Assembly: GCA_016176405.1 (NCBI GenBank)
Contig: JACOXG010000004.1
Coordinates: forward strand, 9,082-73,081
Origin: Candidatus Daviesbacteria bacterium
GTDB lineage: Bacteria > Patescibacteriota > Microgenomatia > Daviesbacterales > UBA10151
Length of the DNA stretch: 64,000 nt
Reading direction: 5' to 3'
Numbering within the stretch: position 1 is the stretch's first letter; each line of letters begins with the position of its first letter. A model generated the notes under the pieces. The model worked only from the letters and a program-made list of their open reading frames with translations. It was not told where the DNA came from and made no database searches. Below, piece by piece: positions 3,476 through 64,000 of this stretch. The position numbers and the translations under genes were made by a program.

Positions 3476-3903
3476 TTCTCTGTTTTAATGCGTCTGGGCC
3501 ATAGGGTCGAATTTCTACTATACATACTTAAGCATCTCTTAGCCCAAATAAATATGCATATTCAGAGTTTAGGCCGTCAGATAGGAATAAATTAAAGAAA
3601 TTATCCAGTCTGTTTAAGATACTAAGCGGATCACAAATATTAGATTGATATATCAATCTAAGGAAGATCTAGATTTTTAGTTTGATTTTGTTCAATTTTT
3701 AATTTTTCATTAGCGGCATTAACAGCATCTTTGGCTCTGTTTTCTATATTTTTAGGATTTGAAGTTGAGGAAGAGTTAAAGGGTGAAAGAGTAGAGTTGG
3801 AAAAAACCAAAAGAAGGATAATTATTAGAGTTGTCACAAGTATAGCAAGTAAACCCATTGACTTTATATTACTATATTTAAATTTCGTATAATATAAGGA
3901 GAG

Positions 3904-4854
3904 ATGTTTAATTGGGTGGATCTAGTTATTATTGGAGCCTTAATGTTTTTTGCCATCGAGGCTATTGGTAGACCAATACTACTGGAACTAATGGATTTTG
4001 GCTCATTTTTAATAGCCTTCTTTTTATCTTTCCGATATTATAATTTACCTGCCAAATTTTTTGAAAATAACTTTCAAATTCCTCATGGTTTATCTTTAGT
4101 GATTGGTTTTATGGTGATGTGGTTTTTGGCAGAAACCATATTTTATCTTTTAGTGAGAATACTTATTCCAAAAGTACCAAAAGTTAAAAGTTCAATTAAT
4201 AGTCTATCTATTATTCCAGCAATACTTCGTGGATTGATATTTATTTCCTTAGCACTGGTTCTTCTGGCCACTTTTCCCATTCAGCCTGCCATCAAAAAAG
4301 CTGTTCAAGATTCCCAAATAGGCAGTCGGATTTTGAAAAATGCTTACAGGTTAGAACAACCTGTCAAACAGGTTTTTGGGGGAGTGGCCAATGATTCTTT
4401 AAGTTTTTTAACCATTAGACCAAGGACTAATGAGAGAATTAATCTAGGTTTTCAAAATGTTCAATCCGAAGTTGATGAGACCACAGAGCGAGCCATGATT
4501 GATTTGGTCAACCAAGAAAGAACCTCCAGGGGACTTAGAGCTTTAACATTTGATGCCAACTTAAGAGAGGTGGCCAGAGCTCACAGTGAAGATATGTTTA
4601 AAAGAGGTTATTTTTCTCATTATTCTCCGGAAGGTGAGACAGTGGCAGATAGGGCTTCAAAAGTAGGGATAGATTTTTTGGTGATTGGGGAAAATTTGGC
4701 CTATGCTCCTAATTTGGAACTGGCTCATCGAGGTTTGATGAACTCGGAAGGTCACAGAGCCAATATTTTATCTGCTGATTATGGCAAAATCGGGATAGGG
4801 GTGATGGATGGAGGAGTGTACGGTAAGATGTACACACAGGTGTTTAGTAACTAG
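3904..4854 (+). CDS. CvpA-family membrane domain fused to CAP/SCP (PR-1-like) domain protein
   Basis: N-terminal CvpA-like 4-TM region (MFNWVDLVIIGALMFF...); C-terminal CAP-domain-like motifs (HRANILSADYGKIGIGV). Confidence 0.6.
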   Translation: MFNWVDLVIIGALMFFAIEAIGRPILLELMDFGSFLIAFFLSFRYYNLPAKFFENNFQIPHGLSLVIGFMVMWFLAETIFYLLVRILIPKVPKVKSSINSLSIIPAILRGLIFISLALVLLATFPIQPAIKKAVQDSQIGSRILKNAYRLEQPVKQVFGGVANDSLSFLTIRPRTNERINLGFQNVQSEVDETTERAMIDLVNQERTSRGLRALTFDANLREVARAHSEDMFKRGYFSHYSPEGETVADRASKVGIDFLVIGENLAYAPNLELAHRGLMNSEGHRANILSADYGKIGIGVMDGGVYGKMYTQVFSN

Positions 4855-6001: not shown

Positions 6002-7515
6002 ATGGTTGAAGTTCTGCCCATTAGAATTTTAAGAGAAGAAGATGGACCTATTTTTGGAAAAGAGGGTGTGGCTCTGGGGAAACTTGACAGAGCCGGTATA
6101 CCGGTAGCATCAGGATTGGTGATAACTGCTCCCCATCTTAAGCTGAGAGTTATTTTAGAGCATCATGATTTTGGATCCAAAGAAGTTTTTGAGCAGTCCC
6201 TAACCTTAGTTAAAAAAGAAATAGAAAAAATTCCCATTCCTGAAGTTTTAGAGCGGGAAGTTGGTCAACACACTCACTTTTGGCTGGCAGATTCTCAAAT
6301 TAAATCAGTTAAAAAACTTTGGTTAAGTTTACTGTTTATTTGGATAGAAGAAATTAAAAATAGACTCTGGCAGGACGGATTTTACCAGGGGATCACGGAT
6401 GGATTGGAATCACAAACGGTGATTTTTGTTAAAAAAATAGAGGGATGGATTGGAATCACAAACGGTGATTTTTGTTAAAAAAATAGAGGCCTGGGGAAAT
6501 GCCTATTTTGATCCCATTCAAGATGAGGTGGTAGTTCATATAAAGCAGGATAAACTTCATCCAAATGATTTGGAAAAGTTGCAAGAAATGGTCAGGCTGG
6601 CCAATAAGAAACTATTTATTCCGCACCAATATGATTGGATTTTAGATAAAGGATTAAAGATCGTTGGAATAAAACCGTTCACACCACCCTTTACTTCACA
6701 TCTATCTGATTTGGTAATTCCTGGCATGTCTACTTATCCCATACAAATAACCCCACTTCATGGGAACGGCATGGGTAAAGAGGCAAAAAGAAGTGTGGTT
6801 AAGGTTTTTTTGGATTTATCAGATGGACTAATCATTGAAAGGGAGGCTGATGGAGTCTATATTGCCGCGGAGAAAATTTTTGATTTAAACAAACCCCGAG
6901 ATTCTTTCGAAGATTTGGTTTTCAGAGTAGTTGAGGCGGCTGTAACTTTTCCCAATAGTCAGATACTTTTTAAATTGGCAGATATGTCAGAAGGAATGGG
7001 AAAGGTAAGAGGTACCTTAAGACTGTTGCATCAAAAAAGTTTATTGGAGCCGCTGATTTGTCAGAGGAGTAGGGGAACTCGTAAAAATCAAACAAGAGTT
7101 ATCTATTAAGAAATTAAAACGCCAAGCCTCTTTACAGTTTTGGTTGGAAATAGCTGTGCCGGAAAATATTATTAATTTGGAGGATTATTTAATGGTGGGA
7201 ATAGATGGAGTAGTTTTAAATTTGGATGAGTTGATTGCTCATTTTAACGGTTTTGACCAAACGCAAGAAGACTTGGTATTTTACAAAAATGAGGTTTCCG
7301 GATTGCTTAAATTTTTAGAAGATAGCATAAAACTGCTTAATAAATCCAAAATTCCTTTTATAGCCTATGGATCTTTAAGCCAATACCAAAAAGTTTTGGA
7401 ATTTTTGGTGGAAAAAGGAGTATATGGAGTGGTGGTGGAAAGATATGAAGTCCCTTCAGCCAAAGATTTGTTGTACCAGACAGAAAAAAGGATGATTTTA
7501 AGAAAATCCTCCTAA
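6002..7515 (+). pseudogene. PEP-utilizing enzyme-like gene (PEP synthase/PPDK-type N-terminal PEP/pyruvate-binding domain + C-terminal TIM-barrel-like domain) broken into three ORFs (6002-6478, 6450-7109, 7144-7515)
   Basis: N-terminal GKEGVALGKL...GIPVASGLVIT resembles the ATP-grasp nucleotide-binding region of PEP synthase; first break coincides with a 46-bp tandem duplication (not a multiple of 3); second frame change near 7050-7060. Confidence 0.45.
6398..6489. repeat. Perfect 46-bp tandem duplication (gatggattggaatcacaaacggtgatttttgttaaaaaaatagagg x2) inside the PEP-utilizing-like gene
   Basis: Two identical adjacent copies read directly; creates the frame break between ORFs 6002-6478 and 6450-7109. 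Confidence 0.9.
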
Positions 7516-8173: not shown

Positions 8174-8800
8174 CTATTGAAATCGCCTTATTACCCCTGT
8201 ACATTTGCCTTGAATTTTTAAAGATTCCGGATCATCTACATAGATTGGGTTCATGGTAGCATTGGCTGGTTCTAACCTAATCCTATTTGGCTCACGGAAA
8301 AATCTTTTTAAGGTGGCCAGACCATTGTCCAAAAGGGCCACCACAATATCTCCGTCATTGGCAATATTTTGCTCCTCAATGATGACAAAGTCTCCATCTA
8401 AAATTCCATCCTCAATCATGGAATCTCCTTTAACTTGTAAAACATATGATCTTTTTTTACCAGAAACCATGGAGGGTGAAACCTTGACTGTGGCATCAGG
8501 ATCTGTGTAGGTCATAATAGGCTGGCCCGCTGCTATAAATCCAAGAATGGGGAGTTCTACGCCTTGTAGAGCTGAGGAGATTTTTTGATCCAATACCTCA
8601 ATACCTCTGACAGCTCCTTCAAATCTTTTGATCACCCCTTTGGCAGATAATGCCTGTAAATGTTCATGAACTGTAGCTAAAGAAGATACTCCAATTGCCT
8701 CAGCGATCTCGCCCAAAGTAGGGGAATAACCATATTTATCAATATATTGTTTAATAAAATCTAAAATCTGTTTTTGCCGGCGGTATAAGGTGATAGGCAT
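8174..8800 (-). CDS. lexA: LexA repressor (SOS regulator; S24 peptidase)
   Basis: N-terminal winged-helix (LTxRQKQILDFI..GYSPTLGEIA), Ala-Gly cleavage-site region, S24 motifs VKGDSM and KR. Confidence 0.9.
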   Translation of the reverse strand: MPITLYRRQKQILDFIKQYIDKYGYSPTLGEIAEAIGVSSLATVHEHLQALSAKGVIKRFEGAVRGIEVLDQKISSALQGVELPILGFIAAGQPIMTYTDPDATVKVSPSMVSGKKRSYVLQVKGDSMIEDGILDGDFVIIEEQNIANDGDIVVALLDNGLATLKRFFREPNRIRLEPANATMNPIYVDDPESLKIQGKCTGVIRRFQ

Positions 8801-8882: not shown

Positions 8883-10433
8883 GTGAAACTGTCCATTAAA
8901 TTTGCTGTAATTATTTTTTTCTCTCTGCTGATTACCACCACCTGGTCCAATTTTTTAATCTTTCCTATCATTAATTCATTTATTAGTTCCAGACCAGTTG
9001 ATGACCCGCTGCTTTTGGGATTACTTGATTTAGCCTTGCTGCTCATTTTGGTAGTCGTACCAATGTCTTTGATGACCTATTTTTTACTTTCAAGGATAGT
9101 TATCAAACCGATTTCTTCATTTACTAAAATTGCCAAAATTATTGCCAGCGGCAATTTAGGAACTAGGTTAAAAATTTCTTCCAGAGATGAGATTGGAGAG
9201 TTAGGTATGCATATAAACACCATTATTGAACATCTGGTCAAAGCTTTCCAAAATATGGCTTATTCCTTAAAAGATGAGCGGTTAAAGGAAAGACAGCTGG
9301 CTGAGAGTTTGGAGCAGCTTAGGAAAGAGAAAGCTAAAGATGATGCCCTTCTTTCTAGTATAGGTGATGGGGTGATTGCCATAGATAAAAACCATCGGAT
9401 TATCCTTTTTAACAATGCAGCTAGTCAACTGACAGGATTTGGATTAAGTGAGGTTTTTAGCCTTCCATATCCAAATATTTTAAGAATTGTCAATGAAAAA
9501 GACCAAACTCCAGCAGAAGATTTTATAGGGTTGGTTTTATCAGGAGGAAATAATAAAAAACAAGAACATCTGGCCATTTTAACCAAAGATGGACGGGAGA
9601 TCCCCATCTCATATTCTTTGGGAGTTATTTATGACAGCGACAGGAGGGTGAATGGGGTGGTGGTGGTTTTAAGAGATATTACTCACGAAAGACAACTGGA
9701 TAAAATGAAAGATGAATTTGTCTCCATTGCCTCTCACGAACTGAGAACCCCTATGTCTGCCATCAAAAATTTAATGTCCATGATTTTTGAGGGAGATTTT
9801 GGGGAGGTTAATGAGCAGCTGAAGGACCCTTTAAAAGATGTAGCCATATCAACAGAGCGGCTAATTCAGTTGGTTAATGATATGTTGGATGTGTCCAGGC
9901 TGGAAACAGGTAGACTTAAAATTGTTTTAGAAGATGCTCCTTTGGCGGGACTTGTAGATGAGATAGTTAAGCTGATGCAATCTTTGGCTCAAGAAACAGG
10001 CAATCATATTTCGGTGGGATCAATTGATCAGAGTATGGTGAGAACCGATGTTAGTAAATTTAAAGAAATTTTGTCTAATTTAATAGGTAATGCCCTTAAA
10101 TTTACAGATAAAGGGCAAATATCAATTTCTACCAAAAGACAAGGTAGCTATATTTTTGTGTCTGTCTCAGATACAGGGATTGGGATTGCCGAAGAAGATA
10201 AGGCAAAACTGTTTGGTAAGTTTTCCCAAATTGGCACAGGGGCTTTAGTCAGGCCACCTGGTACAGGTTTAGGGCTCTATATTTCTCGTGAATTTGCCAG
10301 AAAAATGGGTGGAGATCTTTGGCTGGAGAGTTCTGGGGAAGGAAAGGGGAGTACTTTTACTTTTTCTGTGCCAGTGGCAGATCAGGCTTCTCAACAATCT
10401 GTAATTGAAGATACCAGTTTTATTCAAGCATAA
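8883..10433 (+). CDS. Sensor histidine kinase (TM, HAMP, PAS, HisKA, HATPase_c); GTG start
   Basis: H-box FVSIASHELRTPMSAI; N/G1/G2 boxes (LIGNALKFT; DTGIGI; GTGLGL); two N-terminal TM segments. Confidence 0.85.
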   Translation: MKLSIKFAVIIFFSLLITTTWSNFLIFPIINSFISSRPVDDPLLLGLLDLALLLILVVVPMSLMTYFLLSRIVIKPISSFTKIAKIIASGNLGTRLKISSRDEIGELGMHINTIIEHLVKAFQNMAYSLKDERLKERQLAESLEQLRKEKAKDDALLSSIGDGVIAIDKNHRIILFNNAASQLTGFGLSEVFSLPYPNILRIVNEKDQTPAEDFIGLVLSGGNNKKQEHLAILTKDGREIPISYSLGVIYDSDRRVNGVVVVLRDITHERQLDKMKDEFVSIASHELRTPMSAIKNLMSMIFEGDFGEVNEQLKDPLKDVAISTERLIQLVNDMLDVSRLETGRLKIVLEDAPLAGLVDEIVKLMQSLAQETGNHISVGSIDQSMVRTDVSKFKEILSNLIGNALKFTDKGQISISTKRQGSYIFVSVSDTGIGIAEEDKAKLFGKFSQIGTGALVRPPGTGLGLYISREFARKMGGDLWLESSGEGKGSTFTFSVPVADQASQQSVIEDTSFIQA

Positions 10434-10460
10434 AATATAATATGATATAAGGGAAATATT

Positions 10461-10829
10461 ATGGCCAAAGTTTTGATTGTTGAAGATGATCCTATCTTGC
10501 TAAAAATCTATCATAAAAAATTTGAGATAGAAGGATTTCAAGTAGAGACTGCCATAGATGGAGAGACAGGACTAACAAAGATAAAAACTATCATGCCAAA
10601 CCTTGTTTTAATGGATATCATGTTGCCTAAGATGAATGGGATTGATGCCATGGAAAAAGCCAAGGCAGATCCACAAACTGCCAACATCCCCTTTTTGATC
10701 TTGACCAATCTGTCTACTTCCTCTGATGCTCAGGAAGCGATGAAAAAAGGAGCAGTGGGATTTTTAGTTAAATCAGCTGTCACCCCTGCTCAGGTGGTTG
10801 CCAAAGTCAAAGAAATTCTCAAAATTTAA
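10461..10829 (+). CDS. Single-domain response regulator (CheY-like receiver)
   Basis: Receiver motifs VLIVEDD..., phospho-acceptor Asp in LVLMDIMLP, conserved T/K positions; no output domain. Confidence 0.85.
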   Translation: MAKVLIVEDDPILLKIYHKKFEIEGFQVETAIDGETGLTKIKTIMPNLVLMDIMLPKMNGIDAMEKAKADPQTANIPFLILTNLSTSSDAQEAMKKGAVGFLVKSAVTPAQVVAKVKEILKI

Positions 10830-20575: not shown

Positions 20576-20594
20576 TATTAAACTACGTTCCCAC

Positions 20595-20656
20595 ATCTCA
20601 AGTGGGAAGCTAGATTGTAAATTCCATCTCAAGTGGGAAGCTAGATTGTAAATTCC
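20595..20656. repeat. 31-bp perfect tandem direct repeat x2 (atctcaagtgggaagctagattgtaaattcc)
   Basis: Two adjacent identical copies with no spacer; overlaps the stop codon of the minus-strand ORF 20641-21297. Confidence 0.9.
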
Positions 20657-21297
20657 GCTAAGAATTCCTCTATTTGTGCTTGAGAGATACCAAGAAGCCT
20701 CAGATCTTTTAGGTCTTTTGGTCTGGGAGGTGCAATGTGTAGAGGTGTACTATGTAAATCAACTGATTTACTAAATGTTAATGCTAGAGCATCAAGAATA
20801 TAGACTGGTCTTCCATTAAATTGTACTGGGGTTGAATGACTAAAAAGAATCCTAATATTAGGTTCACTACCAGGAATTCTACGTGATTCGAGCCAGCGTT
20901 TTGCGCTTTTGGAAGGGGTTCCTGCAAATTTTTTCTCTGTCTCACTATCTTCGCTTCGAAGTACTAAATCTACATCCTCTGGAATTTGTCTTGTAGGTAT
21001 TAATAAATGTACCGCTACCCCACCTTCTATAAGGTATTGTAATTGTCCATTTTCAACTTGTGGAAAAATAGAAATTAAAAGATCTAGAATTTTATCCCAG
21101 GAGGGTTGAGGATTTTCCCTATATAATGCTTCCAATGAAGGATGCCTTGGATAGACTATTATTGGTGGGAGTTCTTTCATAAGTTGAATTATACAATAAT
21201 TCATGCATTTTCTTCGGGTCTTCTTAGTGGTAAAATGGAATTTTGTCCCAACGTCATTCCTGCGAATGCTCGCTTCGCGAAGCGAGCAGGAATCCAA
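20641..21297 (-). CDS. Hypothetical protein, possible nucleotidyltransferase-fold (GG...DVDLV); annotated N-terminus is probably repeat-derived
   Basis: IEGGVAVHLL...EDVDLVL motif; first 30 codons are the reverse-strand translation of palindromic element B, so the real start is probably MNYCII (about 21204). Confidence 0.4.
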   Translation of the reverse strand: MDSCSLREASIRRNDVGTKFHFTTKKTRRKCMNYCIIQLMKELPPIIVYPRHPSLEALYRENPQPSWDKILDLLISIFPQVENGQLQYLIEGGVAVHLLIPTRQIPEDVDLVLRSEDSETEKKFAGTPSKSAKRWLESRRIPGSEPNIRILFSHSTPVQFNGRPVYILDALALTFSKSVDLHSTPLHIAPPRPKDLKDLRLLGISQAQIEEFLAEFTI

Positions 21298-21345
21298 TTA
21301 ATAAAATCACGTTCAGAATTGGATCCCCGCCTACGCGGGGATGAC
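21253..21345. repeat. Palindromic element family B (two hairpins: cattcctgc..gcaggaatg and atccccgc-cta-gcggggat) with an extra nested palindrome (gctcgcttcgcgaagcgagc), 18 bp upstream of the uvrB start
   Basis: Near-identical copy in dinB (63114-63188) and a shorter inverted copy in tkt (46931-46987); translated on the plus strand it gives VIPAN...AGIQ...ELDPRLRGDD, a motif widespread in other bacteria. Confidence 0.8.
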
Positions 21346-21362: not shown

Positions 21363-23375
21363 ATGGCAAAGTTTATGATAGTTTCTGACTTTAAACCTAC
21401 TGGGGATCAGCCACAGGCTATTGAGAAGCTGGTGAGTGGATTAAATAATAATGAGAAACATCAAGTTTTGCTTGGTGTGACAGGTTCTGGAAAAACTTTT
21501 ACCATGGCCAATGTGATCCAAAAAGTCCAAAGGCCTACCTTAGTTATTTCTCATAACAAAACTCTTGCAGGGCAGCTGGCTCAAGAATTCAGGTCCCTTT
21601 TTCCCAACAATGCCGTGGAATATTTCGTTTCATACTATGATTATTACCAGCCCGAGGCTTATGTGCCTCAATCAGATACTTATATAGAAAAAGAGACAGA
21701 AATTAATGAGGAAATTGAAAAATTAAGGCTTTCCACTACTACTTCTTTGATGACCCGAAAAGATGTGATTGTGGTGGCCTCAGTATCCTGTATCTATAAC
21801 TTAGGTTCTCCTGTTGAATATGGCGGAGCTATTTTGGAGCTTAAAGAAGGGGTAAGATCTGGATTCCAATCCATTTTGAAGATGTTACAGAAAATGTATT
21901 ACTTGCGGAATGATTTAGATTTTAGAAGATCTACTTATAGAGTTAGAGGTGATACATTGGATATTTATCCTTCATACGCAGATTCTGCTGTTAGAGTAGA
22001 GTTTTTGGGGGACAAGATTGAAAGAGTATCTCATCTTGATCCTTTAACTGGAACAGTTACACCTACTTCCCAAACTTTGACTATTTTTCCTGCCAAACAC
22101 TACATTACTTCTGAGGCCAGATTTGAAGGAGCTTTAAAACAGATTCAGGAAGATTTGGTGGCCAGATTAAAACAGCTTAGGAAACAGGGAAAACTGTTGG
22201 AAGCTCAAAGATTAGAGCAAAGAACTTATTATGATCTGGAAATGATCAAAGAGTTTGGATATTGTAATGGAATTGAGAATTATTCCAGGTATTTTGATGG
22301 AAGAGCTCCAGGTGAGTCACCTTTTACTTTAATGGAATATTTTCCTAAGGATTTTTTACTAATTATTGATGAATCACACATTACTCTTCCTCAAATTAGG
22401 GGTATGTATAATGGTGACAGATCCAGAAAAGAAACCTTGGTTGAGTTTGGATTTAGGCTTCCCTCAGCTTTAGATAATAGACCGCTAAAATACGAGGAAT
22501 TTCAAAGGAAAATAAATCAAGCTATCTATGTTTCAGCCACTCCTGATGAGTATGAATTGAGTTTGGCTGGGGCTCACCTCCGAGGTGAGGGCAAGGTGAC
22601 ATCTGGCACACACCTCGGAGGTGTGGTGGAACAACTGGTCAGGCCAACAGGGATCGTAGATCCACAAATTTCTGTTAGAGGAACCAAAGGACAAATTGAT
22701 GATGTGATCAAAGAGGTAGAAAAACGCGTGGAACGTGGAGAGCGAGTCTTGATCACTACACTTACCAAAAGAATGGCAGAGGATCTGACTGACTATTTGA
22801 AAGAGAAAGGAATTAAGGTGAACTATTTACATTCAGATATTGAGACATTAAAAAGGTCTGATATTTTACAATCTTTAAGATTAGGGGAATTTGATGTGAT
22901 TGTGGGAATTAATCTTTTAAGAGAAGGTTTAGATTTACCAGAAGTAACTTTAGTCATAATCTTAGATGCTGATAAAGAAGGATTTTTAAGATCAAAAACC
23001 TCACTTATACAAACCATGGGCAGAGCTGCTAGAAATATTGGAGGAGAGGTAATTATGTATGCAGATAATGTGACAAAGTCTATGAAAGCTGCTATAGAGG
23101 AGGTGGATAGAAGAAGACAATACCAGGAGGAATATAATAAAAAACATAAAATAAAACCTAGAAGTATTGAGAAAGCTTTAAGGGAAAGGTTAATTGAGCA
23201 AGTTGAAGAGTTAGAAGAGCAATTGGGTAAAAAAGAGTTAAGAGTGGAGGATATTCCACCAAAAGAAAGAGATAAAATGTTAAGAAATTTAGAAACTCAA
23301 ATGAAACAAGCAGCAGAACTTTTGGATTTTGAGGAAGCAGCAAGACTTAGGGATCAAATTAAGGAGCTAAGTTAG
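21363..23375 (+). CDS. uvrB: Excinuclease ABC subunit B (UvrB), carrying an in-frame 18-aa insertion from a palindromic repeat
   Basis: Walker A GVTGSGKTFT, helicase motifs, beta-hairpin region, C-terminal UvrBC coiled-coil domain (EEAARLRDQIKEL); insertion [18 protein letters not shown] between YELSLAG and VEQLVRPTG. Confidence 0.95.
   Translation: MAKFMIVSDFKPTGDQPQAIEKLVSGLNNNEKHQVLLGVTGSGKTFTMANVIQKVQRPTLVISHNKTLAGQLAQEFRSLFPNNAVEYFVSYYDYYQPEAYVPQSDTYIEKETEINEEIEKLRLSTTTSLMTRKDVIVVASVSCIYNLGSPVEYGGAILELKEGVRSGFQSILKMLQKMYYLRNDLDFRRSTYRVRGDTLDIYPSYADSAVRVEFLGDKIERVSHLDPLTGTVTPTSQTLTIFPAKHYITSEARFEGALKQIQEDLVARLKQLRKQGKLLEAQRLEQRTYYDLEMIKEFGYCNGIENYSRYFDGRAPGESPFTLMEYFPKDFLLIIDESHITLPQIRGMYNGDRSRKETLVEFGFRLPSALDNRPLKYEEFQRKINQAIYVSATPDEYELSLAGAHLRGEGKVTSGTHLGGVVEQLVRPTGIVDPQISVRGTKGQIDDVIKEVEKRVERGERVLITTLTKRMAEDLTDYLKEKGIKVNYLHSDIETLKRSDILQSLRLGEFDVIVGINLLREGLDLPEVTLVIILDADKEGFLRSKTSLIQTMGRAARNIGGEVIMYADNVTKSMKAAIEEVDRRRQYQEEYNKKHKIKPRSIEKALRERLIEQVEELEEQLGKKELRVEDIPPKERDKMLRNLETQMKQAAELLDFEEAARLRDQIKELS
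22575..22623. repeat. REPIN-like element family A (cacctcCgaggtg - 23 bp - cacctcGgaggtg) inserted in-frame in uvrB
   Basis: Two 13-bp palindromes in inverted orientation; same arms at 25176-25224 (uvrA), 63728-63777 (dinB) and related palindromes flanking the HuH transposase gene at 48785-48809/49524-49543. Confidence 0.85.
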
Positions 23376-23688: not shown

Positions 23689-23825
23689 ATAAAGTAATCT
23701 TATACCCCTTTAAAAATCTTGTCAAATACCTCATAATATGGTCTTTAAAGATTCAAGGGCTTCCAAAATCTTGCAAAAGAGATTATAATATCCCAGTCAT
23801 TTTTCGGGAATTTTTCGTATGCCTA

Positions 23826-25532
23826 TTGACAAAATTATTATCAAAGGTGCTCGTGAGCACAATCTTGGCTTTTGATACCCTATATGCTGAGGGGCAGAGA
23901 AGATATGTTGAATCCCTTTCTGCTTATGCCAGGCAGTTTTTGGGGGTCATGGATAAGCCTGATGTAGATTTAATTGAAGGATTATCTCCTGCTATTTCTA
24001 TTGATCAAAAAGGAGTTTCACACAATCCCAGATCTACTGTTGGAACAACTACTGAAATTTATGATTACTTAAGGCTACTTTTTGCCAGAATTGGCCATCC
24101 TCATTGTCCTATTTGTGGCAGGGAAATTAGTAGGATGAGTGTGGAACAGATTGTGGAAATAGTCATCAGTAGTCAGTCATCAGCTATCAGCAAGAAGGGG
24201 AGAAGAATCATGGTTTTGGCTCCTGTTGTTAAAGATAGAAAAGGGGAGTACTCCTCGCTTTTTGAAGATTTAAGAAAGAAAGGTTTTTCTAAAGCCAGAG
24301 TTGATGGGCAGATTAGGGATTTGAGTGAGGATTTTGTATTGATTAAAACTAATAAGCACACTATTGATGTCGTAGTTGATCGGCTCGTGTTAGAGTCTAG
24401 AGTCAAGAATCTAGAATCTAGTGAGACACAATATAGACTCTCGACTCTAGCGACTAGACTCTCACAAAGTATTGAAACAGCAGTTAAATTAGGTGAAGGA
24501 TCTGTAATAGTTTCTGATGTTTTAGATGCTTCTTTAGAATTTCCCCAGAGCCCTAAAAAAATGGAAGATCACCTATACTCTGAAAGATTTGCCTGTCCTG
24601 TTGACAATATAGCTCTATCTGAGGTTGAGCCCAGATTATTTTCTTTTAATTCCCCCCACGGAGCTTGTCCAACATGCTCCGGATTAGGTTCTCTTTTAGA
24701 GATTGATCCGGAAATGGTCTTAAACCCAATTTTATCCATTGCTGAGGGTGGAATTTTACCCTGGCAAAAATTAGCCACTCATGAAACCTGGTTTTCCAGG
24801 CTAATTGAGGCAGTGGGTAAGGAATATGGCTTTGACTTAAACACCAGATTAGGACAGCTTTCAGATGAGGCTAAAAAAGTGCTTCTACATGGTTCAGGAG
24901 ACGATGAATTCAGAGTGGAAGGTAGAAATAGACAAGGCAGATGGACCTCATTTTATTCTGAATTTCAAGGCTTAGTTCCATATTTAAAGCAAAGATACCA
25001 AGAATCTGAATCAGATTATGTCAGAGCAGAAATTGAAAAATATATGTATAAAGAAACATGTCCCAAATGTAAAGGGGCTAGGCTTAAAGATGAGGCTTTA
25101 TCAATCACCATTGATGGTTTAAATATTGCTGAGGTGACCACCCAATCTATCAACGAAGCTTTAGATTGGATTGCTCACCTCCGAGGTGAGGGCAAGGTGA
25201 TGTCTGGATCACACCTCGGAGGTGTACTCTCGGAACGAGAATGGCAAATTGCCACCTCAATTGTCAAAGAAATTAAAGCTAGATCACAGTTTTTGATTGA
25301 TGTAGGTTTAGATTATTTAACTTTAGATAGACCCTCTATGACTTTGGCAGGAGGGGAGTCACAAAGGATCAGATTGGCCTCTCAAATTGGTTCAGGGTTA
25401 TCTGGAGTTTTATATGTTTTAGATGAACCCTCAATTGGTTTACATCAAAGGGATAATGCCAGGTTGATTGATACTTTAAAGAGACTGCGGGATTTGGGAC
25501 GGAGGGAAAATTGTCGATACTGGAACCCCTGA
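23826..25532 (+). CDS. uvrA: Excinuclease ABC subunit A (UvrA), N-terminal/central segment; gene appears disrupted
   Basis: [26 protein letters not shown], zinc-finger Cys pairs, ABC signature [12 protein letters not shown]; a separate upstream start [16 protein letters not shown] (23819) is in another frame and the NBD-I Walker A segment is absent; contains three repeat-derived in-frame insertions. Confidence 0.85.
24391..24463. repeat. Palindromic element family C (tagagtctagagtc...agactctcgactctagcgactagactct) inserted in-frame in uvrA
   Basis: Related copy at 52335-52401 (intergenic in the MacAB-like operon); encodes [24 protein letters not shown]. Confidence 0.7.
25176..25224. repeat. 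REPIN-like element family A inserted in-frame in uvrA (encodes [18 protein letters not shown])
   Basis: Same 13-bp inverted palindromic arms as the uvrB copy; spacer differs at a few positions. Confidence 0.85.
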
Positions 25533-25590
25533 CCAAATTAAAAAGAGCCCAGCCTCTTTAACAGGTCAATATTTATCCGGAAAAAAGCAG

Positions 25591-26622
25591 GTGAGAGTTA
25601 ATGGAGAACTGAGAAGACAATATGTGAACATGGGACATTTAAAAATTAAGGGAGCCTCTCAGCATAATTTAAAAAATATCAATGTAGATTTTCCTTTGGG
25701 ACAATTTATAGCAATCACTGGAGTTTCAGGTTCAGGTAAATCAACTTTAATTCATGATATTTTATATAAAGCTTTAGCTCAGAAAGTTTATAAAACTAAG
25801 GAAAGACCAGGAGCTCATAAGGAATTGGAAGGTATGGAGTATGTGGACAAGGTGGTTTTAGTTGATCAATCACCAATTGGTCGGACTCCCCGCTCAAATC
25901 CAGCCACCTACACAGGCGCTTTTACTTTTATCAGAGATTTATTTGCCCAAAGTCCTGAGGCTAAAATCAGAGGTTATGGACCTGGCAGATTTTCTTTTAA
26001 TGTCAAAGGTGGCAGGTGTGAGGTTTGTGAGGGAGAAGGACAGCTCAAAATTGAGATGCAGTTTTTACCGGATGTGTATGTGACTTGTGAGGCATGTAAT
26101 GGTAAAAGATATAACAGAGAAGCTTTGGATATTCATTTTAAAGAAAAAAATATCTCAGATGTTTTAGAAATGACTGTGGAGGAAGGGTTAAAGTTTTTTG
26201 AAAATATTCCTAATTTAAAAAATAAATTACAGGTGTTAAATGATGTGGGGTTAGGTTATATAGGGTTAGGTCAGCCAGCCCCAACCTTGAGTGGTGGTGA
26301 AGCCCAAAGAATAAAACTCTCTTCAGAGCTGTCCAAAAGACCAACAGGACACACAGTTTATATTTTGGATGAGCCCACCACTGGTTTACATTTTGCGGAT
26401 ATAGAAAGGCTTTTGACCATTCTAAGAAGACTGGTTAATTTTGGGAATACGGTCATAATTATTGAGCATAATTTAGATGTGATTAAAAATACCGATTGGG
26501 TCATAGACTTAGGCCCAGAAGGTGGGGATAAAGGAGGGCAAATTATAGCAGAAGGCACTCCCCAAAATATAGCCAAAATCAAATCTTCATATACCGGTCA
26601 ATATTTGGCAAAAATACTCTAA
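25591..26622 (+). CDS. uvrA: UvrA C-terminal segment (NBD-II); frame extends upstream to about 25495
   Basis: Walker [12 protein letters not shown], zinc finger [17 protein letters not shown], signature [12 protein letters not shown], Walker [13 protein letters not shown]-loop IIIEHN; separated from the upstream segment by a frame change plus loss of about 29 aa (NBD-I Walker B/H-loop). Confidence 0.85.
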
Positions 26623-26659: not shown

Positions 26660-28591
26660 ATGTTTAAGAAGCTTTTCAGCCAAGTTATGAGTTATTGGTT
26701 ATGGGTTATGAGTGTCTTATTGTCTTTACTCATAACTCATAACTCATCACTCATCACTCCTGTCTATGCTGCTGAGGAGTTTGCTACCTCATATGAGGTG
26801 GTTTATGACATTACCGAAGATGGAATAACCACAGTTACTGAAAAAATTACCTTAATAAATTTAACTTCTCAATATTACGCCAACCAATTTAAGCTGACCA
26901 TTGGTGCCACCGAGGTTTTTGATGTCAAAGCCTCTGATGATGCTGGTGTCATGGAAGTCAATACCAAAAAGGAAGAAACTAGCACCTCTATTGAGGTTAA
27001 GTTTAACCAACAGGTGGCAGGTCTAGGTAAACAATTGCCCTGGACTTTACAATTTAAATCCAAAGATTTTGCCGAAAAAGTGGGAAAGGTTTGGGAAGTG
27101 AGAGCTCCCAAAATTTCCTCCAGCACCAATTTGGAGTCTTATAATCTGACCATTGCAGTTCCCCAAAGCTTTGGTGAACCAACCCTGATTACACCTAACC
27201 CCAAAAGCCAAACCAGCTCCACAGGTAGGCTATTTTTAACCTTTACCGAGGACCAGATTACCCAATCAGGAGTTTCTGCCAATTTTGGTACTATCCAGCT
27301 TTTTGATTTTGATCTGACCTATCATCTGGAAAATGACAATTTAGTACCCATCTTAACCAATATTGCTCTGCCTCCTGATACTGCTTTCCAGGATGTCATT
27401 TTTCAAAGGATTGAACCTAAGCCAATTAATGTCTCGGTTGATGAGGACGGCAATTATTTGGCCTGGTATCGACTAACCAGAGGCCAAAAATTGGATATTC
27501 AAGTAGTTGGTTCAGCCAAATTATATAGTAGTTCCAAAGTTAAAAATCCTATCTTAAGCGATGATCTCAAAAGAAAATATACCCGAGCAGACAAATATTG
27601 GGAAAGGGATAATCCCCAAATAATCTCCTTACTGACACAAATCCTGGGTGACACCCCTCCTGCCACTACATCAGAAAAGGCCAAATTAATTTTTCGCTAT
27701 GTGGTCAATAGCTTAAAATATGATCAATCCAGACTGACTGACGATATTGAAAGATATGGAGCAGTGACTGCTTTAAATAATCCTACTTCTGCGGTTTGTA
27801 TGGAATTTACTGATCTGTTTATTGCCCTGTCCCGGGCAGCTGGCATTCCTGCCAGGGAGCTCAATGGTTTTGCTTACTCAGCTAACCCAGCCTTAAGACC
27901 ACTTTCTCTAACCAAAGATATTTTGCACTCCTGGCCAGAATATTTCGATGAGAGAGTCGGTTGGGTCATGGTAGACCCCACCTGGGAAAATACCACTGGT
28001 GGGGTAGATTATTTTTCCAAACTTGATTTAAATCATTTTGTTTTTGTCACCAAAGGTTTATCTTCCATTCAACCGATTCCAGCCGGCTCTTATAAATACA
28101 GTGGGCAAGACAGCCGAGATGTCAAGGTGGTTTTATCTGATAAGGATTTTTTGGGGAAGGCCCAGATTAATGTGGAGGTTGAAGCTGCGAACCCCCTTCT
28201 GTCAGGTTTTGGAGGCAAAATAAAAGTTAAAATCACCAATCTAGGCAATGCTCTTTTTTCTTCTACCCCTTTTTCTTTGTCGAGTTCCCAAATATCTATT
28301 CAGTCCCACCAATCCTCAACCACTGGCCCTATACCTGCTTTTGGGACTGCTGAATTTGAATATAATGTCAAAACCAAATCATTATTTGATTCTTTTGATG
28401 ATAATTTAGTGGCTTTAGTCGGTGGGCAGAAATTTGAAAACCCCATCAGTGTTAGGCCTTTTATTCTCTTTCAAAGAGTACCCCTAATTATTTTCTCCAG
28501 CTTGATAGCTTTGATGGTGGTCCTTTATTTAACCATTCTTTTGGTCTTTACCTTAAGAAAAAGACACCTTTGGATATTTAGACCCAAATGA
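26660..28591 (+). CDS. Secreted transglutaminase-like (Cys-His-Asp) domain protein with C-terminal TM anchor
   Basis: Transglutaminase-core motifs AVCMEFTDLFIALSRAAGIPAR...HSWPEYF...VMVDPTW; signal peptide encoded by a heptamer inverted repeat. Confidence 0.7.
   Translation: MFKKLFSQVMSYWLWVMSVLLSLLITHNSSLITPVYAAEEFATSYEVVYDITEDGITTVTEKITLINLTSQYYANQFKLTIGATEVFDVKASDDAGVMEVNTKKEETSTSIEVKFNQQVAGLGKQLPWTLQFKSKDFAEKVGKVWEVRAPKISSSTNLESYNLTIAVPQSFGEPTLITPNPKSQTSSTGRLFLTFTEDQITQSGVSANFGTIQLFDFDLTYHLENDNLVPILTNIALPPDTAFQDVIFQRIEPKPINVSVDEDGNYLAWYRLTRGQKLDIQVVGSAKLYSSSKVKNPILSDDLKRKYTRADKYWERDNPQIISLLTQILGDTPPATTSEKAKLIFRYVVNSLKYDQSRLTDDIERYGAVTALNNPTSAVCMEFTDLFIALSRAAGIPARELNGFAYSANPALRPLSLTKDILHSWPEYFDERVGWVMVDPTWENTTGGVDYFSKLDLNHFVFVTKGLSSIQPIPAGSYKYSGQDSRDVKVVLSDKDFLGKAQINVEVEAANPLLSGFGGKIKVKITNLGNALFSSTPFSLSSSQISIQSHQSSTTGPIPAFGTAEFEYNVKTKSLFDSFDDNLVALVGGQKFENPISVRPFILFQRVPLIIFSSLIALMVVLYLTILLVFTLRKRHLWIFRPK
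26684..26759. repeat. Inverted arrays of heptamer-like direct repeats (gttatgag... / ...ctcataac) encoding the signal peptide of the transglutaminase-like protein
   Basis: Left arm gttatgagttattggttatgggttatgagtg versus right arm ctcataactcataactcatcactcatcactc. Confidence 0.7.
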
Positions 28592-29883
28592 TCCCATCTT
28601 TTATTGATAAATCCAATATTCCACATAGAAGTGGTGTCTATATTTTTAAGGATAATAGGCAAAGTGTTATTTATGTGGGAAAAGCGATTGATTTATATCA
28701 TCGAGTAGCCTCATATTTTGGCAATCATAGTGGTGATGTAAAACTAACAAATTTGGTAAGTAACATTTCTTCAGTGGAAACCATTATCGTGGAATATGAA
28801 CTGGAAGCCTTAATTTTGGAGGCCAACTTAATCAAAAAATACCTACCTCCTTTTAATGTTAGTTTAAAAGATGATAAAGATTATCTTTATATTGGTATTA
28901 CCAAAGAAGATTTTCCCAAAGTCATTACATTAAGAAAACAAGATTTAAAAAGGGTTAAGAAGTTTTTTGGCCCCTTTCCTTCTGCGAGGACCGTTAGAGA
29001 CACACTTAAGCTGTTGCGTCGGGTCTTCCCTTGGTGTGCCAATCCACCTGGATTAAGAAATAGATACTCAAGACCTTGTTTCTATTACCATATAGGTTTA
29101 TGTCCTGGTGTATGTGCTGGATTAATTACTAAACAAGATTACCAGAAAACTATTAGAAGATTTGCCTTCTTTTTGGAGGGGAAAAAAGAGGAGCTGGTAG
29201 AGGAGTTATTTAGAGAAATGGCTGAAGCAGCTAAAGAAGAAAAGTTTGAAGAAGCTTCTAAAGTCAAGAAAATGCTTGATGGTATCAATTATCTTCTCCA
29301 GCCAAATAGAGCTCAGATTTATTTGGAAAACCCTAATTTTTTACAGGAAGAAAACAAACAAGCTCTAGTTAAACTTCAGAAGGATCTTAATTTGGAAAAA
29401 TTACCGGAAAGGATTGAGGCTTATGATATTTCTAATATTCAAGGTAAAGACGCAGTAGGATCAATGGTAGTTTTAACAAATGGTGAGATTGATAAATCTC
29501 AGTACAGAAAATTCAGAATCAGAGTGGCCGGAAGACCAAATGATGTAGGTATGCATAAAGAGATGATCAGACGTCGTTTAAACCATCCAGAATGGCCAAT
29601 GCCTGACTTAATCTTAGTAGATGGAGGAAGGGGACAGGCAAGAGCTGTAAAATTACAAATTACAAATTACAAATTGAATAACCTGCCTTTGGCAGGACAA
29701 ATTCCAGTTCTCGGCTTGGCCAAAAGAATGGAGTGGTTGTACCCACCTGAGGGTGAAGTGATCAAACTTTCCAAAAGAAGTTTAGCATTGAAACTATTGC
29801 AAAAAATTAGAGATGAAGCTCACCGTTTTGCTGTGACCTTCCATAGAAAGTTACACCAAAAATCGGTTATACTGGGATTGTAA
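28588..29883 (+). CDS. uvrC: Excinuclease ABC subunit C (UvrC), short form lacking the C-terminal HhH region
   Basis: GIY-YIG motif SGVYIFKDNRQSVIYVGKA, UvrB-interaction region, RNase-H-like domain ending in IRDEAHRFAVTFHRK; only 431 aa. Confidence 0.8.
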   Translation: MIPSFIDKSNIPHRSGVYIFKDNRQSVIYVGKAIDLYHRVASYFGNHSGDVKLTNLVSNISSVETIIVEYELEALILEANLIKKYLPPFNVSLKDDKDYLYIGITKEDFPKVITLRKQDLKRVKKFFGPFPSARTVRDTLKLLRRVFPWCANPPGLRNRYSRPCFYYHIGLCPGVCAGLITKQDYQKTIRRFAFFLEGKKEELVEELFREMAEAAKEEKFEEASKVKKMLDGINYLLQPNRAQIYLENPNFLQEENKQALVKLQKDLNLEKLPERIEAYDISNIQGKDAVGSMVVLTNGEIDKSQYRKFRIRVAGRPNDVGMHKEMIRRRLNHPEWPMPDLILVDGGRGQARAVKLQITNYKLNNLPLAGQIPVLGLAKRMEWLYPPEGEVIKLSKRSLALKLLQKIRDEAHRFAVTFHRKLHQKSVILGL

Positions 29884-46070: not shown

Positions 46071-47567
46071 TTTCGGACAATGAATAATCTAAGAGAGCTA
46101 GCTAAGCTAGTTAGGTACTTTATCTTAATTTCCACCACTGAGGCAGGGTCTGGGCATCCTACCTCATCTCTATCCGCCACCGACTTGATGGTGGCTCTTT
46201 TTTTTGGAGGATTTCTTCATTTTGATTTGAAAAATATAGATAATGCCAATAATGATCGTTTAATTTTCTCTAAAGGTCACGCCTCCCCTCTTTTCTACTC
46301 AATTTATGGGGCAGCCGGTGCAGTTTCTGAAAAGGAGCTTCTGACTCTGAGAAAGTTTGACAGTCCATTAGAGGGGCATCCTTCCACGGAGTTTCCCTTT
46401 ACCGAGGTTCCCACAGGATCTTTGGGTCAAGGTTTATCTGTTGGAGTTGGTATGGCTATTAATGCTAAATATCTGGATAAATTGGGATATAAAACTTTTG
46501 TACTATTGGGTGATTCTGAGATGGCAGAAGGATCTGTTTGGGAGGCAATTCAGCTGGCAGCATTTTACAAATTGGACAATTTGGTGGCAATTTTGGATGT
46601 GAACAGATTGGGACAAAGAGGGCAGACTATGTATGGACATGATGTTAAAGCATATCAGCAAAGAGTTTCCAGTTTTAGTTGGAAAACTATTGTAATTGAT
46701 GGACATAATTTGGCTCAGATTAAAAGGGCGTATCAGCGAGCCTTAAAGACTAAAAATGTCCCTACTATGATTATTGCTAAAACTATTAAAGGTAAAGGAT
46801 TTTCAATTTGGGAGGATAAAGATGGTTGGCATGGGAAGGCACTTCCTAAGGAGGATTTGGAAAGGGCTTTGAAGGAATTGGGTTATATAAATAAGAAACT
46901 TCGTGGAAAACTCAGCTTACCCACAAAGTCATCCCCGCTTTCGCGGGGATCCATAAATAATTGGATTCCTGCCTCCGCAGGAATGACAAACTATTCCCAA
47001 GGTGACATGGTGGCAACAAGAAAGGCCTATGGTAATGCTTTAGTAAGGCTTGCTCCCAAATATCCTGATATGGTGGTATTAGATGCCGAGGTGAATAACT
47101 CTACTTATTCAGAATTTTTTGCCCAAAAATTTCCCCAAAAATATTTTGAGATGTTTATTGCTGAACAAAATATGGTGGGAGTGGCTTTGGGACTTTCAAG
47201 GCGGGGCAAAATGCCTTTTATCTCCACCTTCGCCGCCTTTTTAACTAGAGCTTTCGATCAAATCAGAATGGCTCAGTATGCCAAAACTAATATTAAGTTT
47301 TGTGGTTCTCATGCAGGAGTTTCCATAGGGGAAGATGGGCCCTCTCAGATGGGATTAGAAGACATTGCCATGTTTAGGACAATTATGGGTAGTGTGGTGT
47401 TGTATCCTTCTGATGCTGTCTCTTGCGAAAAATTGGTGGAAGAGGCTGCAAAGCATTATGGCATGGTTTATATTAGAACCACCAGAAAAGATACACCTGT
47501 TATTTATTCTAATAATGAGCAATTCAAAGTGATCATGACCAGGTTACTATTTTGGGAGCAGGGATAA
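46062..47567 (+). CDS. tkt: Transketolase (N-terminal TPP-binding + pyrimidine-binding domains), with an in-frame repeat insertion and a 3' frameshift
   Basis: TPP motifs GSGHPTSSLS, GDSEMAEGSVWEA; 19-aa insertion SSPLSRGSINNWIPASAGM from palindromic element B; frame changes around 47527-47545 into ORF 47552-47896. Confidence 0.85.
   Translation: MIQFRTMNNLRELAKLVRYFILISTTEAGSGHPTSSLSATDLMVALFFGGFLHFDLKNIDNANNDRLIFSKGHASPLFYSIYGAAGAVSEKELLTLRKFDSPLEGHPSTEFPFTEVPTGSLGQGLSVGVGMAINAKYLDKLGYKTFVLLGDSEMAEGSVWEAIQLAAFYKLDNLVAILDVNRLGQRGQTMYGHDVKAYQQRVSSFSWKTIVIDGHNLAQIKRAYQRALKTKNVPTMIIAKTIKGKGFSIWEDKDGWHGKALPKEDLERALKELGYINKKLRGKLSLPTKSSPLSRGSINNWIPASAGMTNYSQGDMVATRKAYGNALVRLAPKYPDMVVLDAEVNNSTYSEFFAQKFPQKYFEMFIAEQNMVGVALGLSRRGKMPFISTFAAFLTRAFDQIRMAQYAKTNIKFCGSHAGVSIGEDGPSQMGLEDIAMFRTIMGSVVLYPSDAVSCEKLVEEAAKHYGMVYIRTTRKDTPVIYSNNEQFKVIMTRLLFWEQG
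46931..46987. repeat. Palindromic element family B (short form, inverted orientation) inserted in-frame in tkt
   Basis: atccccgc-tttc-gcggggat hairpin plus cattcctgc-ctcc-gcaggaatg hairpin; 57 bp = 19 codons. Confidence 0.8.
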
Positions 47568-48756: not shown

Positions 48757-48784
48757 GGATTTTTAAATAAGTATTAGTTGCTAT

Positions 48785-48809
48785 CATTCCTACCTCGGAG
48801 GTAGGAATG
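48785..48809. repeat. REP-like perfect palindrome (cattcctacctc-g-gaggtaggaatg) 3' of tal and flanking the HuH transposase gene
   Basis: 25-bp palindrome whose core acctcNgaggt matches family A arms; followed by a T-run, so it may also terminate tal. Confidence 0.8.
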
Positions 48810-48840
48810 AATGTGCACGTAGGGTTTTATCCAGTATTTT

Positions 48841-49518
48841 TTATTCAAGAAGCTTATGTTTAATTAATTCAAGCTTTCTAGCATAATCTACTTGATCTAG
48901 TACAAATTGTTCATATCTTTTGGAATTTTTAAATAATGAGATAACAACTTCCTTATTGCAAATTTTATCTTCTTGTAATTCAAGATAGGATACATATGAT
49001 GACCAAGGATAGTCTCTTAAGTTTTTAACTAAATAGGAAGCAATTGGGTTTAGGTGTATATATCGTGATAAATGTATCAATTGTTCATCTGATTCCACTC
49101 TGACAGCCTTAAATTGTCCTTGGAAGAGTGGCCCAACGCGCTCATGACGTGTATTAAAGTACTTAGTATAGCTGTTAGAAACCTTATTAATGAATTCAGA
49201 GATTCCCTTTTCTTCGAGCTGCCGCAACATAAAGTGATAATGGTTAGGCATTAGGCAATAGCAAATTATTTCCACAATTCTTTTGTTCTTCTCATACTCA
49301 AAATCCTTAAAACGATTTAACTGAGAAAATTGAGGTTTGGGTCCCTGGAATTGGTAATAGTAGATCGTCTCTAAGAATCGATTGTAATCTCTTCGATCAT
49401 CAAATACCGGCATCTTTGCCACTCCACGATTAAAAACATGGTAGACTTGGCCAGTGGCCAATGGAATTATTCGATAGGGCATAAATTCTACTAAACCACA
49501 TATTACCCAAGGTGTCAA
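48841..49518 (-). mobile_element. IS200/IS605-type HuH tyrosine transposase, probable REP-associated tyrosine transposase (RAYT)
   Basis: HuH motif LMPNHYHFM, catalytic Tyr region LSRYIHLNPIASYLV (compare E. coli RAYT YIYINPVKHGWV); flanked on both sides by REP-like palindromes of the same family dispersed in the window. Confidence 0.75.
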
Positions 49519-49523: not shown

Positions 49524-49543
49524 TTCCACCTCGGAGGTAGGAG
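49524..49543. repeat. REP-like palindrome (ttccacctc-g-gaggtaggag) immediately 5' of the HuH transposase gene
   Basis: Matches the left-flank palindrome and family A arms. Confidence 0.8.
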
Positions 49544-63113: not shown

Positions 63114-63188
63114 GTCATTCCTGCGAATGCAGGAATCCAATTAAATGAATCACGTTCGGAATTGGATCCCCGCCTACGCGGGGATGAC
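63114..63188. repeat. Palindromic element family B inserted in-frame in dinB (encodes VIPANAGIQLNESRSELDPRLRGDD)
   Basis: Near-identical to the 21253-21345 copy minus its nested palindrome. Confidence 0.85.
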
Positions 63189-63727: not shown

Positions 63728-63777
63728 CCACCTCCGAGGTGAACCCAGTATTTCAACTAGTGCACACCTCGGAGGTG
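63728..63777. repeat. REPIN-like element family A inserted in-frame in dinB (encodes HLRGEPSISTSAHLGGV)
   Basis: ccacctcCgaggtg - 23 bp - cacctcGgaggtg. Confidence 0.85.
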
Positions 63778-64000
63778 TATTTTCGGGAGATGGGATGCAG
63801 ATGACTATCTCTTACAGCAATGATGGATTGGCAATCTTCCATGCAGCCTGGAAAATTTTCCAGAAACTGTGGAATGAAGACAAGATTAGAATGGTTGGTG
63901 TATCCATATCTAACCTCAAATCCCAAAATCCTCAGAATCTATCATTACTTGAAGATTTTTTAACTCAGGAAAAAATTATTCAAACCATGGATAAAATTAA

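Follow-up and report, generated by a model that had tools for sequence, protein, structure and literature searches.

The uvrB gene on contig JACOXG010000004.1 of a Candidatus Daviesbacteria bacterium (assembly GCA_016176405.1) contains, within its coding sequence, a short pair of inverted palindromes that leaves the reading frame unbroken. This raises the question of what kind of DNA has entered the gene of a repair protein to be translated as part of it. The locus was analyzed within a stretch of 64,000 nt (positions 9,082–73,081 of the contig), which is referred to here as the window. The uvrB segment is most probably a non-autonomous mobile element of the repetitive extragenic palindrome (REP) or REPIN kind, the latter being a doublet of inverted REPs. 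Its candidate mobilizer is a Y1 transposase resembling the REP-associated tyrosine transposases (RAYTs), and the segment would persist as a translated passenger. Overall, the window looks like a REP/RAYT system with the uvrB insert as its REPIN-type doublet, because the transposase best matches RAYTs and the same palindrome core lies on both sides of its gene, here and in orthologues. An earlier note on this DNA had called the segment a REPIN-like doublet, a name borne out by these flanks and by the recurrence of the element in other genes and genomes.

Structure of the doublet and its copies in the window

The doublets and their host genes are as follows.

22575–22623, forward strand: REPIN-type doublet in uvrB, composed of CACCTCCGAGGTG (22575–22587), a 23-nt spacer AGGGCAAGGTGACATCTGGCACA and CACCTCGGAGGTG (22611–22623)
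21363–23375, forward strand: uvrB, the host gene, a full-length open reading frame (ORF) of 670 aa with every UvrB Pfam domain present
25176–25224, forward strand: second doublet, in frame in uvrA and read as 21 residues; 92% identical to the uvrB copy over 53 nt
23820–26622, forward strand: uvrA, disrupted in the assembly by two frameshifting deletions relative to the UvrA of locus L075
63729–63777, forward strand: third doublet, in frame in dinB and read AFHLRGEPSISTSAHLGGVFS; arms the same as in the others, 23-nt spacer diverged
62828–64000, forward strand: dinB, encoding a Y-family polymerase; runs past the window end

The two 13-nt arms of the uvrB doublet are perfect reverse complements and, exactly as the earlier note had described, they form inverted palindromes 23 bp apart and in frame. 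Each arm lies within a longer palindrome of 17 nt (CTCACCTC-C-GAGGTGAG and CACACCTC-G-GAGGTGTG). As a single strand, the doublet is predicted to fold into a hairpin with a 13-bp stem (-32.6 kcal/mol, z = -3.1), and the corresponding energies are -30.0 kcal/mol for the uvrA doublet and -27.4 kcal/mol (z = -5.3) for that in dinB. Here, the architecture that defines a REPIN, two inverted REPs with a short gap that form one hairpin, is present in the window doublets at -27 to -33 kcal/mol. All three have the same 13 + 23 + 13 design and one common reading frame. The G+C content of the uvrB doublet is 63%, versus 37.5% for the window.

The palindromes are far more frequent than expected by chance. 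The 13-mer CACCTCSGAGGTG, with one mismatch allowed, occurs seven times in the window (0.01 expected from shuffles), and the 11-nt core ACCTCSGAGGT has nine matches (0.26 expected). Beyond the doublets, a relaxed search for this core finds only two exact sites, 48792–48802 and 49528–49538; a single-mismatch match at 50701–50711 is at chance level and was disregarded. Thus the element described in the earlier note does not stand by itself: the same window holds two more full doublets and two single palindromes that flank a transposase gene. Together, three doublets and two flanking palindromes in 64 kb compare with approximately 0.01 to 0.3 by chance.

Codons 22572–22625 of uvrB would translate the doublet into 18 residues, placed between ...YELSLAG and VEQLVRPTG, and an NCBI UvrB from Candidatus Daviesbacteria matches the window protein with 100% identity. 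The 18 codons previously reported as added are indeed read, but the net gain relative to the closest orthologues with an empty site is 14 codons, or 42 nt. The description of the gene as otherwise intact holds for the ORF of uvrB itself, which is complete, but not for its partner uvrA or for dinB, which have two frameshifting deletions and one, respectively, in the assembly.

A candidate transposase flanked by the same palindrome

Approximately 26 kb from the uvrB doublet lies the gene for the candidate transposase, with a palindrome on either side.

48841–49482, reverse strand: RAYT-like Y1 (HUH) tyrosine transposase, 213 aa long with the ATG at 49482 as start and 225 aa with the TTG at 49518
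49527–49539, no strand assigned: single REP palindrome upstream of the transposase gene, reading CCTACCTCCGAGGTGG on the strand of the gene
48784–48810, no strand assigned: perfect palindrome of 27 nt on the downstream side of the gene, TCATTCCTACCTC-G-GAGGTAGGAATGA, which contains the core ACCTCSGAGGT; TCATTCCTACCTC-C-GAGGTAGGAATGA on the strand of the gene

The transposase ORF (48841–49518) matches the Pfam family Y1_Tnp with 35.5 bits (cut-off 23). Its best NCBIfam match is REP_Tyr_transpos (E = 4e-17), with a score of 62 bits that lies under the curated cut-off of 80 bits. Among 20 homologues, neither the HuH motif (MPNHYHF) nor the tyrosine motif (SRYIHLNP) varies. A search of the PDB with the single sequence gave no match and a profile of homologues was needed; the top match of this profile is E. 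coli TnpA(REP) (4er8; a marginal E = 0.019) with both motifs aligned, and ISDra2 TnpA is next. The gene is present in one copy in 64 kb and no adjacent tnpB was called.

In the window, YACCTC[C/G]GAGGTR stands on either side of the transposase gene, and the core ACCTCSGAGGT is found on both sides of the gene in loci L077, L078, L079 and L081 as well. The orthologues in three other Patescibacteria genomes (L078, L079 and L081; 63–74% identity) have flanks that read CTACCTC[C/G]GAGGTAG or that are hybrids with the C...G form. The flanking copies read CTACCTCCGAGGTAG, with GTAG within the stem, and the dispersed doublets have GGTG there. The flanks have T/A as the outermost arm base and the dispersed copies have C/G; hybrids occur in the window and in L079. 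The neighborhood of the gene, which includes PGI, G6PD, 6PGD, ROK, MacB/FtsX and guanylate kinase, is common to the window, L078 and L079, so that this pentose-phosphate setting is conserved across genomes. In Daviesbacteria STB_119 (L080), there are two paralogous RAYT-like genes located 6 kb apart (3661–4311 and 10001–10651), each with a different palindrome at its flanks (CAAACCCGGTTTG and TCCACCCTTGGGGTGGA).

A second inverted pair is located inside the REPs, with TATTGACACSTRGGGTTT upstream and AAACCCTAGGTGT downstream of the transposase gene (window positions 49495–49512 and 48815–48830), and it occupies the same positions in L078, L079 and L081. This inner pair may be the remnant of insertion-sequence ends, or a promoter and its complement.

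Empty sites and a recurrent insertion loop in UvrB

The closest UvrB orthologues, P0002 (86%) and P0007 (84%), are both 657 aa long and without the insert, and the segment is absent from all solved UvrB structures. Judged by these comparisons, and as the earlier note had anticipated, the insert is lineage-specific. In the alignment to 2fdc, residues 402 and 403 of Bacillus caldotenax UvrB (YELE / HSPGVVEQ) lie on either side of the insert. In the published structure, this site would be the loop that precedes the linker into domain 3. The surface loop in domain 3 that had been predicted becomes a defined position in the alignment, but on this assignment it precedes the linker rather than lying in the domain. 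The AlphaFold model of the window UvrB is poor (mean predicted local distance difference test score, pLDDT, 61); it renders the insert as coil with pLDDT <50, which is uninformative at such quality.

The loop is 19 residues long in the window and five in the closest empty-site orthologues, and the empty-site DNA of L075 and L076 encodes ELSLAG-[K/S]EN[I/V][T/A]-EQLVRP. The uvrA site behaves in the same manner. Here, the UvrA proteins of L051 and L066 have a doublet at the same position, in genes that are full-length open frames, and that of L075 is an empty site. The uvrB and uvrA sites have each gained a net 42 nt. This is 7 nt less than the 49-nt doublet, the difference required for the frame to be restored.

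The same UvrB loop was surveyed in the 120 closest orthologues (75–86% identity). A common baseline loop of 10 residues (LAG-xxNVA-EQ) is found in 69 of them, and 44 Daviesbacteria UvrBs have at least three extra residues in this loop, contributed by an intact doublet, a decayed one or another palindromic family. Among the 44, 22 have REP-like remnants that run from intact (HLRG..HLGG) to decayed (HLPGE..HLEGV, HPRG.., TPGV..), the decayed copies being found in this loop in other lineages. At least three more are filled by the second palindromic family of the window, described at the end (LSVIPANAGIQ...RLRGNDD), and the remaining inserts are of no recognizable origin. The HPRG/TPGV-type remnants of other genomes could stem from the second palindrome type of L080 (TCCACCCTTGGGGTGGA).

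Elsewhere in Daviesbacteria UvrB, short inserts of a third kind (PASPAGG, LPAGRQG or PPAGRAG) are found repeatedly, namely in P0015, P0034, P0040, P0048, P0092 (reference aa 327), P0003 (aa 481), P0041 and P0102. This suggests yet another small, GC-rich palindrome family.

Copies in other genomes and their reading frames

Further copies were sought in one genome per species (species representatives), using an exact scan that required exact arms. The scan returned 74 loci with 76 further copies, for a total of n = 79 with the three window copies. Most copies are in Davies-, Curtiss-, Roizman-, Levy- and Beckwithbacteria, mostly Microgenomates, with few copies per genome fragment. The spacer is 17, 23, 26 or 29 nt in 71 of the 79 copies, lengths that are all equal modulo 3. 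One 17-nt spacer, GTGTTGCGCCTGCGGCA, is identical in eight loci, which represent six unrelated genes. CT is enriched just 5' of the left arm (20/33 and 19/33), and the arms remain perfect even where spacer identity has dropped to about half.

Where REPINs are by definition extragenic, these copies mostly are not: open frames of 150 aa or more hold the three doublets of the window and 68 of the 79 sampled copies. The frame used by the 68 is HLRG..HLGG in 46, TSEV..TSEV in 20 and the one that usually makes TGA in two. Only two of the six frames of the 49-nt consensus lack stop codons; of 31 consensus-like copies, 20 use the forward one of these, HLRGEAKVTPGSHLGG, and none uses the reverse one. 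The 43-nt variant has no stops in any of the six frames, and on each strand of the short palindrome two of the three frames are open. This pattern of frame use is the one expected from survival under selection for an open frame.

A few outliers are genuine, namely a Sandaracinaceae contig of 69.5% G+C, Omnitrophota and a metagenome-assembled genome (MAG) of Bathyarchaeia. Viral contigs gave no match to the doublet pattern, and a phage vector was dropped on that account. Many of the MAGs with copies are labeled Gammaproteobacteria or Pseudomonadales and have 37–42% G+C, and one of these (apparently CAZJNI01) has a UvrB that is 83% identical to that of the window. Because of this G+C content and this UvrB, the labels "uncultured Gammaproteobacteria" and "Pseudomonadales" are probably wrong, and an apparent spread across phyla was set aside as partly illusory. 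The loci suspected of such mislabeling are L010, L016, L017, L020, L031, L034, L046, L047, L051, L054, L066, L074 and others.

Host genes and an apparent repair-gene bias

The hosts belong to 45 independent families of housekeeping genes with strong Pfam matches, including PurL, the CCA-adding enzyme, GatA, SecA, four tRNA synthetases, RF1/2, GAPDH, TsaD, Era, FolD, CarA, UppS and the ATP synthase gamma subunit. DNA maintenance accounts for seven of the 45 (UvrA, UvrB, UvrD, DinB, ATP-dependent ligase, PolA and TopA), and these seven hold 18 copies out of the 68 with a long open frame. By gene number, this is roughly a 2–3-fold excess of repair genes, an estimate that is suggestive only and that may vanish once gene length is allowed for. 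In the window, three of five repair genes have doublets, and lexA (8174–8800) and uvrC (28588–29883) are free of them.

Two ideas prompted by these hosts were discarded. A LexA operator, which the three SOS-type hosts of the window brought to mind, was rejected given that hosts elsewhere are very diverse and that the element is predicted to be translated. An intrinsic terminator or known RNA family was also rejected, as there is no terminator-like site at the element and no match to it in Rfam.

At orthologous sites, the element often differs from genome to genome. The spacer in UvrB is 23 nt in one genome and 17 nt in another, that in SecA is 23 versus 29 nt, and PolA has the HLRG reading in one genome and TSEV in the other. 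These differing variants speak for multiple insertions or for replacement in place, and against plain vertical descent.

Relation to known systems

The statement in the earlier note that REPs are normally extragenic is outdated. Intragenic REPs were published in 2013 by Di Nocera, De Gregorio and Rocco (BMC Genomics 14:522), who described monomers and dimers of the GTAG and CGTC types, in frame and encoding 20–30 aa (PMC3733652). The hosts reported include uvrB in Rickettsia conorii, uvrA in Thioalkalivibrio and Opitutus terrae, UvrD, Pol I and DNA ligase, and REPs were found inside genes for UvrABC, UvrD, Pol I, RecBCD, DnaE2 and ligase, which the authors doubted was due to chance (PMC3733652). 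The elements described here are like the GTAG/CGTC REPs in being in-frame monomers and dimers, in the association with a RAYT-like gene flanked by REPs, and in the CTAC...GTAG of the transposase-flanking copies of the window. They are unlike them in that those REPs are mostly intergenic, with a minority inside genes, and long open frames hold 68 of the 79 copies sampled here; in a palindrome of 13–15 nt rather than 20–40; in the GGTG that replaces GTAG in dispersed copies; and in a host phylum, Patescibacteria of the candidate phyla radiation (CPR), outside the coverage of that study. The literature searched held no paper linking RAYTs with CPR, and an exact-sequence literature search found no paper with CACCTCCGAGGTG.

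Similarly, the window shares with the REPIN/RAYT systems (Bertels and Rainey 2011, PMC3116915; Nunvar 2010; Ton-Hoang 2012; Corneloup 2021, PMC8266576) the doublets of inverted REPs that form a hairpin, a transposase apparently in single or few copies with a conserved neighborhood and its own REP type in the flanks, paralogous transposases with different REPs, CT beside the palindrome, and perfect palindromes with short loops, as in group 3. RAYT genes flanked by their own REPs are well documented (PMC3733652, PMC8266576, bioRxiv 10.1101/119735). In contrast, REPINs were defined and sought in extragenic space and the window doublets are within translated frames, the doublet is only 43–55 nt here, and the transposase is a distant relative by its NCBIfam and 4er8 matches.

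The earlier note also likened the insert to the Rickettsia palindromic elements (RPEs), and this comparison holds up: in-frame doublets recur in housekeeping genes, and RPE-4 and RPE-6 have been equated with CGTC-type REPs (PMC3733652). The likeness extends to palindromic repeats in frame in many housekeeping genes, tolerance in surface loops, and decay (Ogata et al. 2000, 2002, cited in PMC3733652). The differences are that a candidate transposase with matching flanks is present here, that the host is not an intracellular alphaproteobacterium, and that there is no sequence similarity, the RPEs having been compared by description. RPE-1 is presumably around 100–150 bp long and without a known transposase. 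The Coxiella elements QMITE1/2 were rejected as relatives, since they differ in size and structure.

Alternative explanations

Could the doublet instead be an exapted nucleic-acid signal, placed preferentially in genome-maintenance genes, to which a protein binds, which forms a hairpin in the mRNA (for stability or ribosome pausing) or which serves in uptake or recombination? This is improbable. The perfect arms in copies with diverged spacers would fit a signal, but this is an ascertainment effect of a scan in which exact arms were required, and the unbiased sampling of UvrB orthologues yields a continuum of decayed arms. The 17-nt palindrome at each arm of the uvrB copy would suit a dimeric binder. 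The occurrence of all three window copies in SOS-type repair genes, together with the DNA-maintenance share of copies and families elsewhere, points in the same direction, and Di Nocera et al. held such a bias unlikely to be fortuitous (PMC3733652). However, hosts such as SecA, PurL, GatA, tRNA synthetases, GAPDH and FolD are very diverse, and seven of 45 families is, by rough estimate, only about 2–3 times the share of repair genes by number and probably not significant after length is considered. The lack of a terminator-like tail and of an Rfam match, and the few copies per genome fragment, also argue against a signal.

Still less likely is a classical MITE (a miniature transposable element with inverted repeats), that is, a deletion derivative of an insertion sequence with a DDE transposase, moved by cut-and-paste on double-stranded DNA. 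The perfect 13-bp terminal inverted repeats and the small size are as expected for a MITE, but a target-site duplication was seen in the flanks of 0/79 copies and each terminus is itself palindromic. In addition, a length of 43–55 nt is under the 70–300 bp described for MITEs (PMC3733652), and the only gene with the same flanking sequence encodes a Y1/HUH transposase, not a DDE enzyme. Finally, a native or adaptive UvrB segment, or an assembly artifact, would agree with the preserved frame and full-length ORF but is hardly credible and largely refuted, as the segment is absent from the 69 of 120 closest orthologues with the baseline loop and from all solved UvrBs, the same DNA is found in unrelated genes in two different frames, and the 74 loci come from independent assemblies of different projects.

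Proposed mechanism

The REP/RAYT interpretation suggests the following route. By analogy with TnpA(REP) and IS200/IS605, the transposase would recognize folded palindromes on single-stranded DNA (ssDNA) and cut beside them, and it would then move or copy the doublet to new sites. Characterized TnpA(REP) enzymes cut at a CT dinucleotide (PMC8266576), and the CT found just 5' of the left arm matches this cleavage site and may serve as such here. Insertions could land anywhere, and the intragenic ones that persist would be those that keep the frame, are stop-free and fall in tolerant loops. In uvrB, this would be the loop that precedes the linker to the second helicase domain. The insert would then be a translated passenger peptide, probably with no function of its own, and it would decay by mutation in lineages where it is not renewed.

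Several points weigh against this interpretation. Mobilization by a cognate RAYT, and translation of the insert, are inferred from sequence. The transposase scores 62 bits, under the RAYT cut-off of 80, and matches 4er8 only marginally. At the ends of the dispersed copies stands C...G (GGTG), at those of the flanking ones mostly T...A (GTAG), so that the two are related, not identical. Co-occurrence of doublet and transposase could be judged only on fragments of the other genomes, and the copy count for the source genome covers the 64-kb window only. The gain at the uvrB and uvrA sites is 42 nt, not 49, with no clean footprint, and neither a target-site duplication nor an exact footprint appears in the empty-site DNA alignments or flank logos; the footprint is unreadable because the orthologues are too diverged (81–86% aa identity).

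A broader proposal is possible but tentative. Here, the REPINs of Daviesbacteria and other Microgenomates would have shifted to being mainly intragenic, translated inserts, and several families with their own transposases would compete for a few permissive loops, with residents replaced by transposase-mediated exchange of palindromes. Such exchange would produce the differing variants and frames at the UvrB, SecA and PolA sites. If the genome-maintenance bias is real, it would tie activity to ssDNA in damage-induced genes or to loss of repair.

As intragenic REPs and RPEs, including those in uvrA and uvrB, show, elements of this kind were known before. The novelty lies in the host phylum, in how short the doublet is, in a sample found predominantly inside genes and in a hot-spot loop common to several families. 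The REP/RAYT association and in-frame REPs would thereby be extended to the CPR, with its tiny genomes and almost no intergenic space. The 44 of 120 UvrBs with independent or decaying inserts in one loop constitute a large natural data set, of use for studying protein tolerance of selfish DNA, the rate of insert decay and the reality of the repair-gene bias. For annotation, the element accounts for odd peptides in CPR proteins ("HLRGE...HLGGV", "TSEV...TSEV" and "VIPANAGIQ / IPASAGMT"), which should not be taken for functional motifs.

Frameshifts, a second palindromic family and minor observations

Three frameshifting deletions of approximately 18–29 codons fall exactly in the two other repair genes with doublets. 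Those in uvrA (near 23860 and 25500) remove approximately residues 17–41, including Walker A, and residues 574–602, after Walker B of the first ATPase module. The one in dinB, near 62995–63005, removes about 18 residues. These are either assembly errors or real pseudogenization of excision repair and translesion synthesis. If nucleotide excision repair is decaying in this organism, no further reason has to be sought for uvrB's tolerance of the insert. The UvrA genes with a doublet in L051 and L066 are, as noted above, full-length.

A second, unrelated palindromic family is present in the window. It comprises a GTCATYCCYGC hairpin, approximately 30 nt, and then GGATCCCCGC-CTAC-GCGGGGATGAC, and it also fills the UvrB hot-spot loop in orthologue P0003. 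Its copies in the window are as follows.

21250–21345: just upstream of uvrB, with a small palindrome nested in the first hairpin
46923–46988: in frame in the inter-domain linker of transketolase (KSSPLSRGSINNWIPASAGMT)
63113–63193: in frame in dinB (FSVIPANAGIQLNESRSELDPRLRGDD)

The uvrC gene of the window encodes only 431 aa, with GIY-YIG and RNase H-like endonuclease domains; a C-terminal helix-hairpin-helix region was not detected. The window also contains exact tandem duplications of 2 x 46 nt at 6397–6488 and 2 x 31 nt at 20594–20655.

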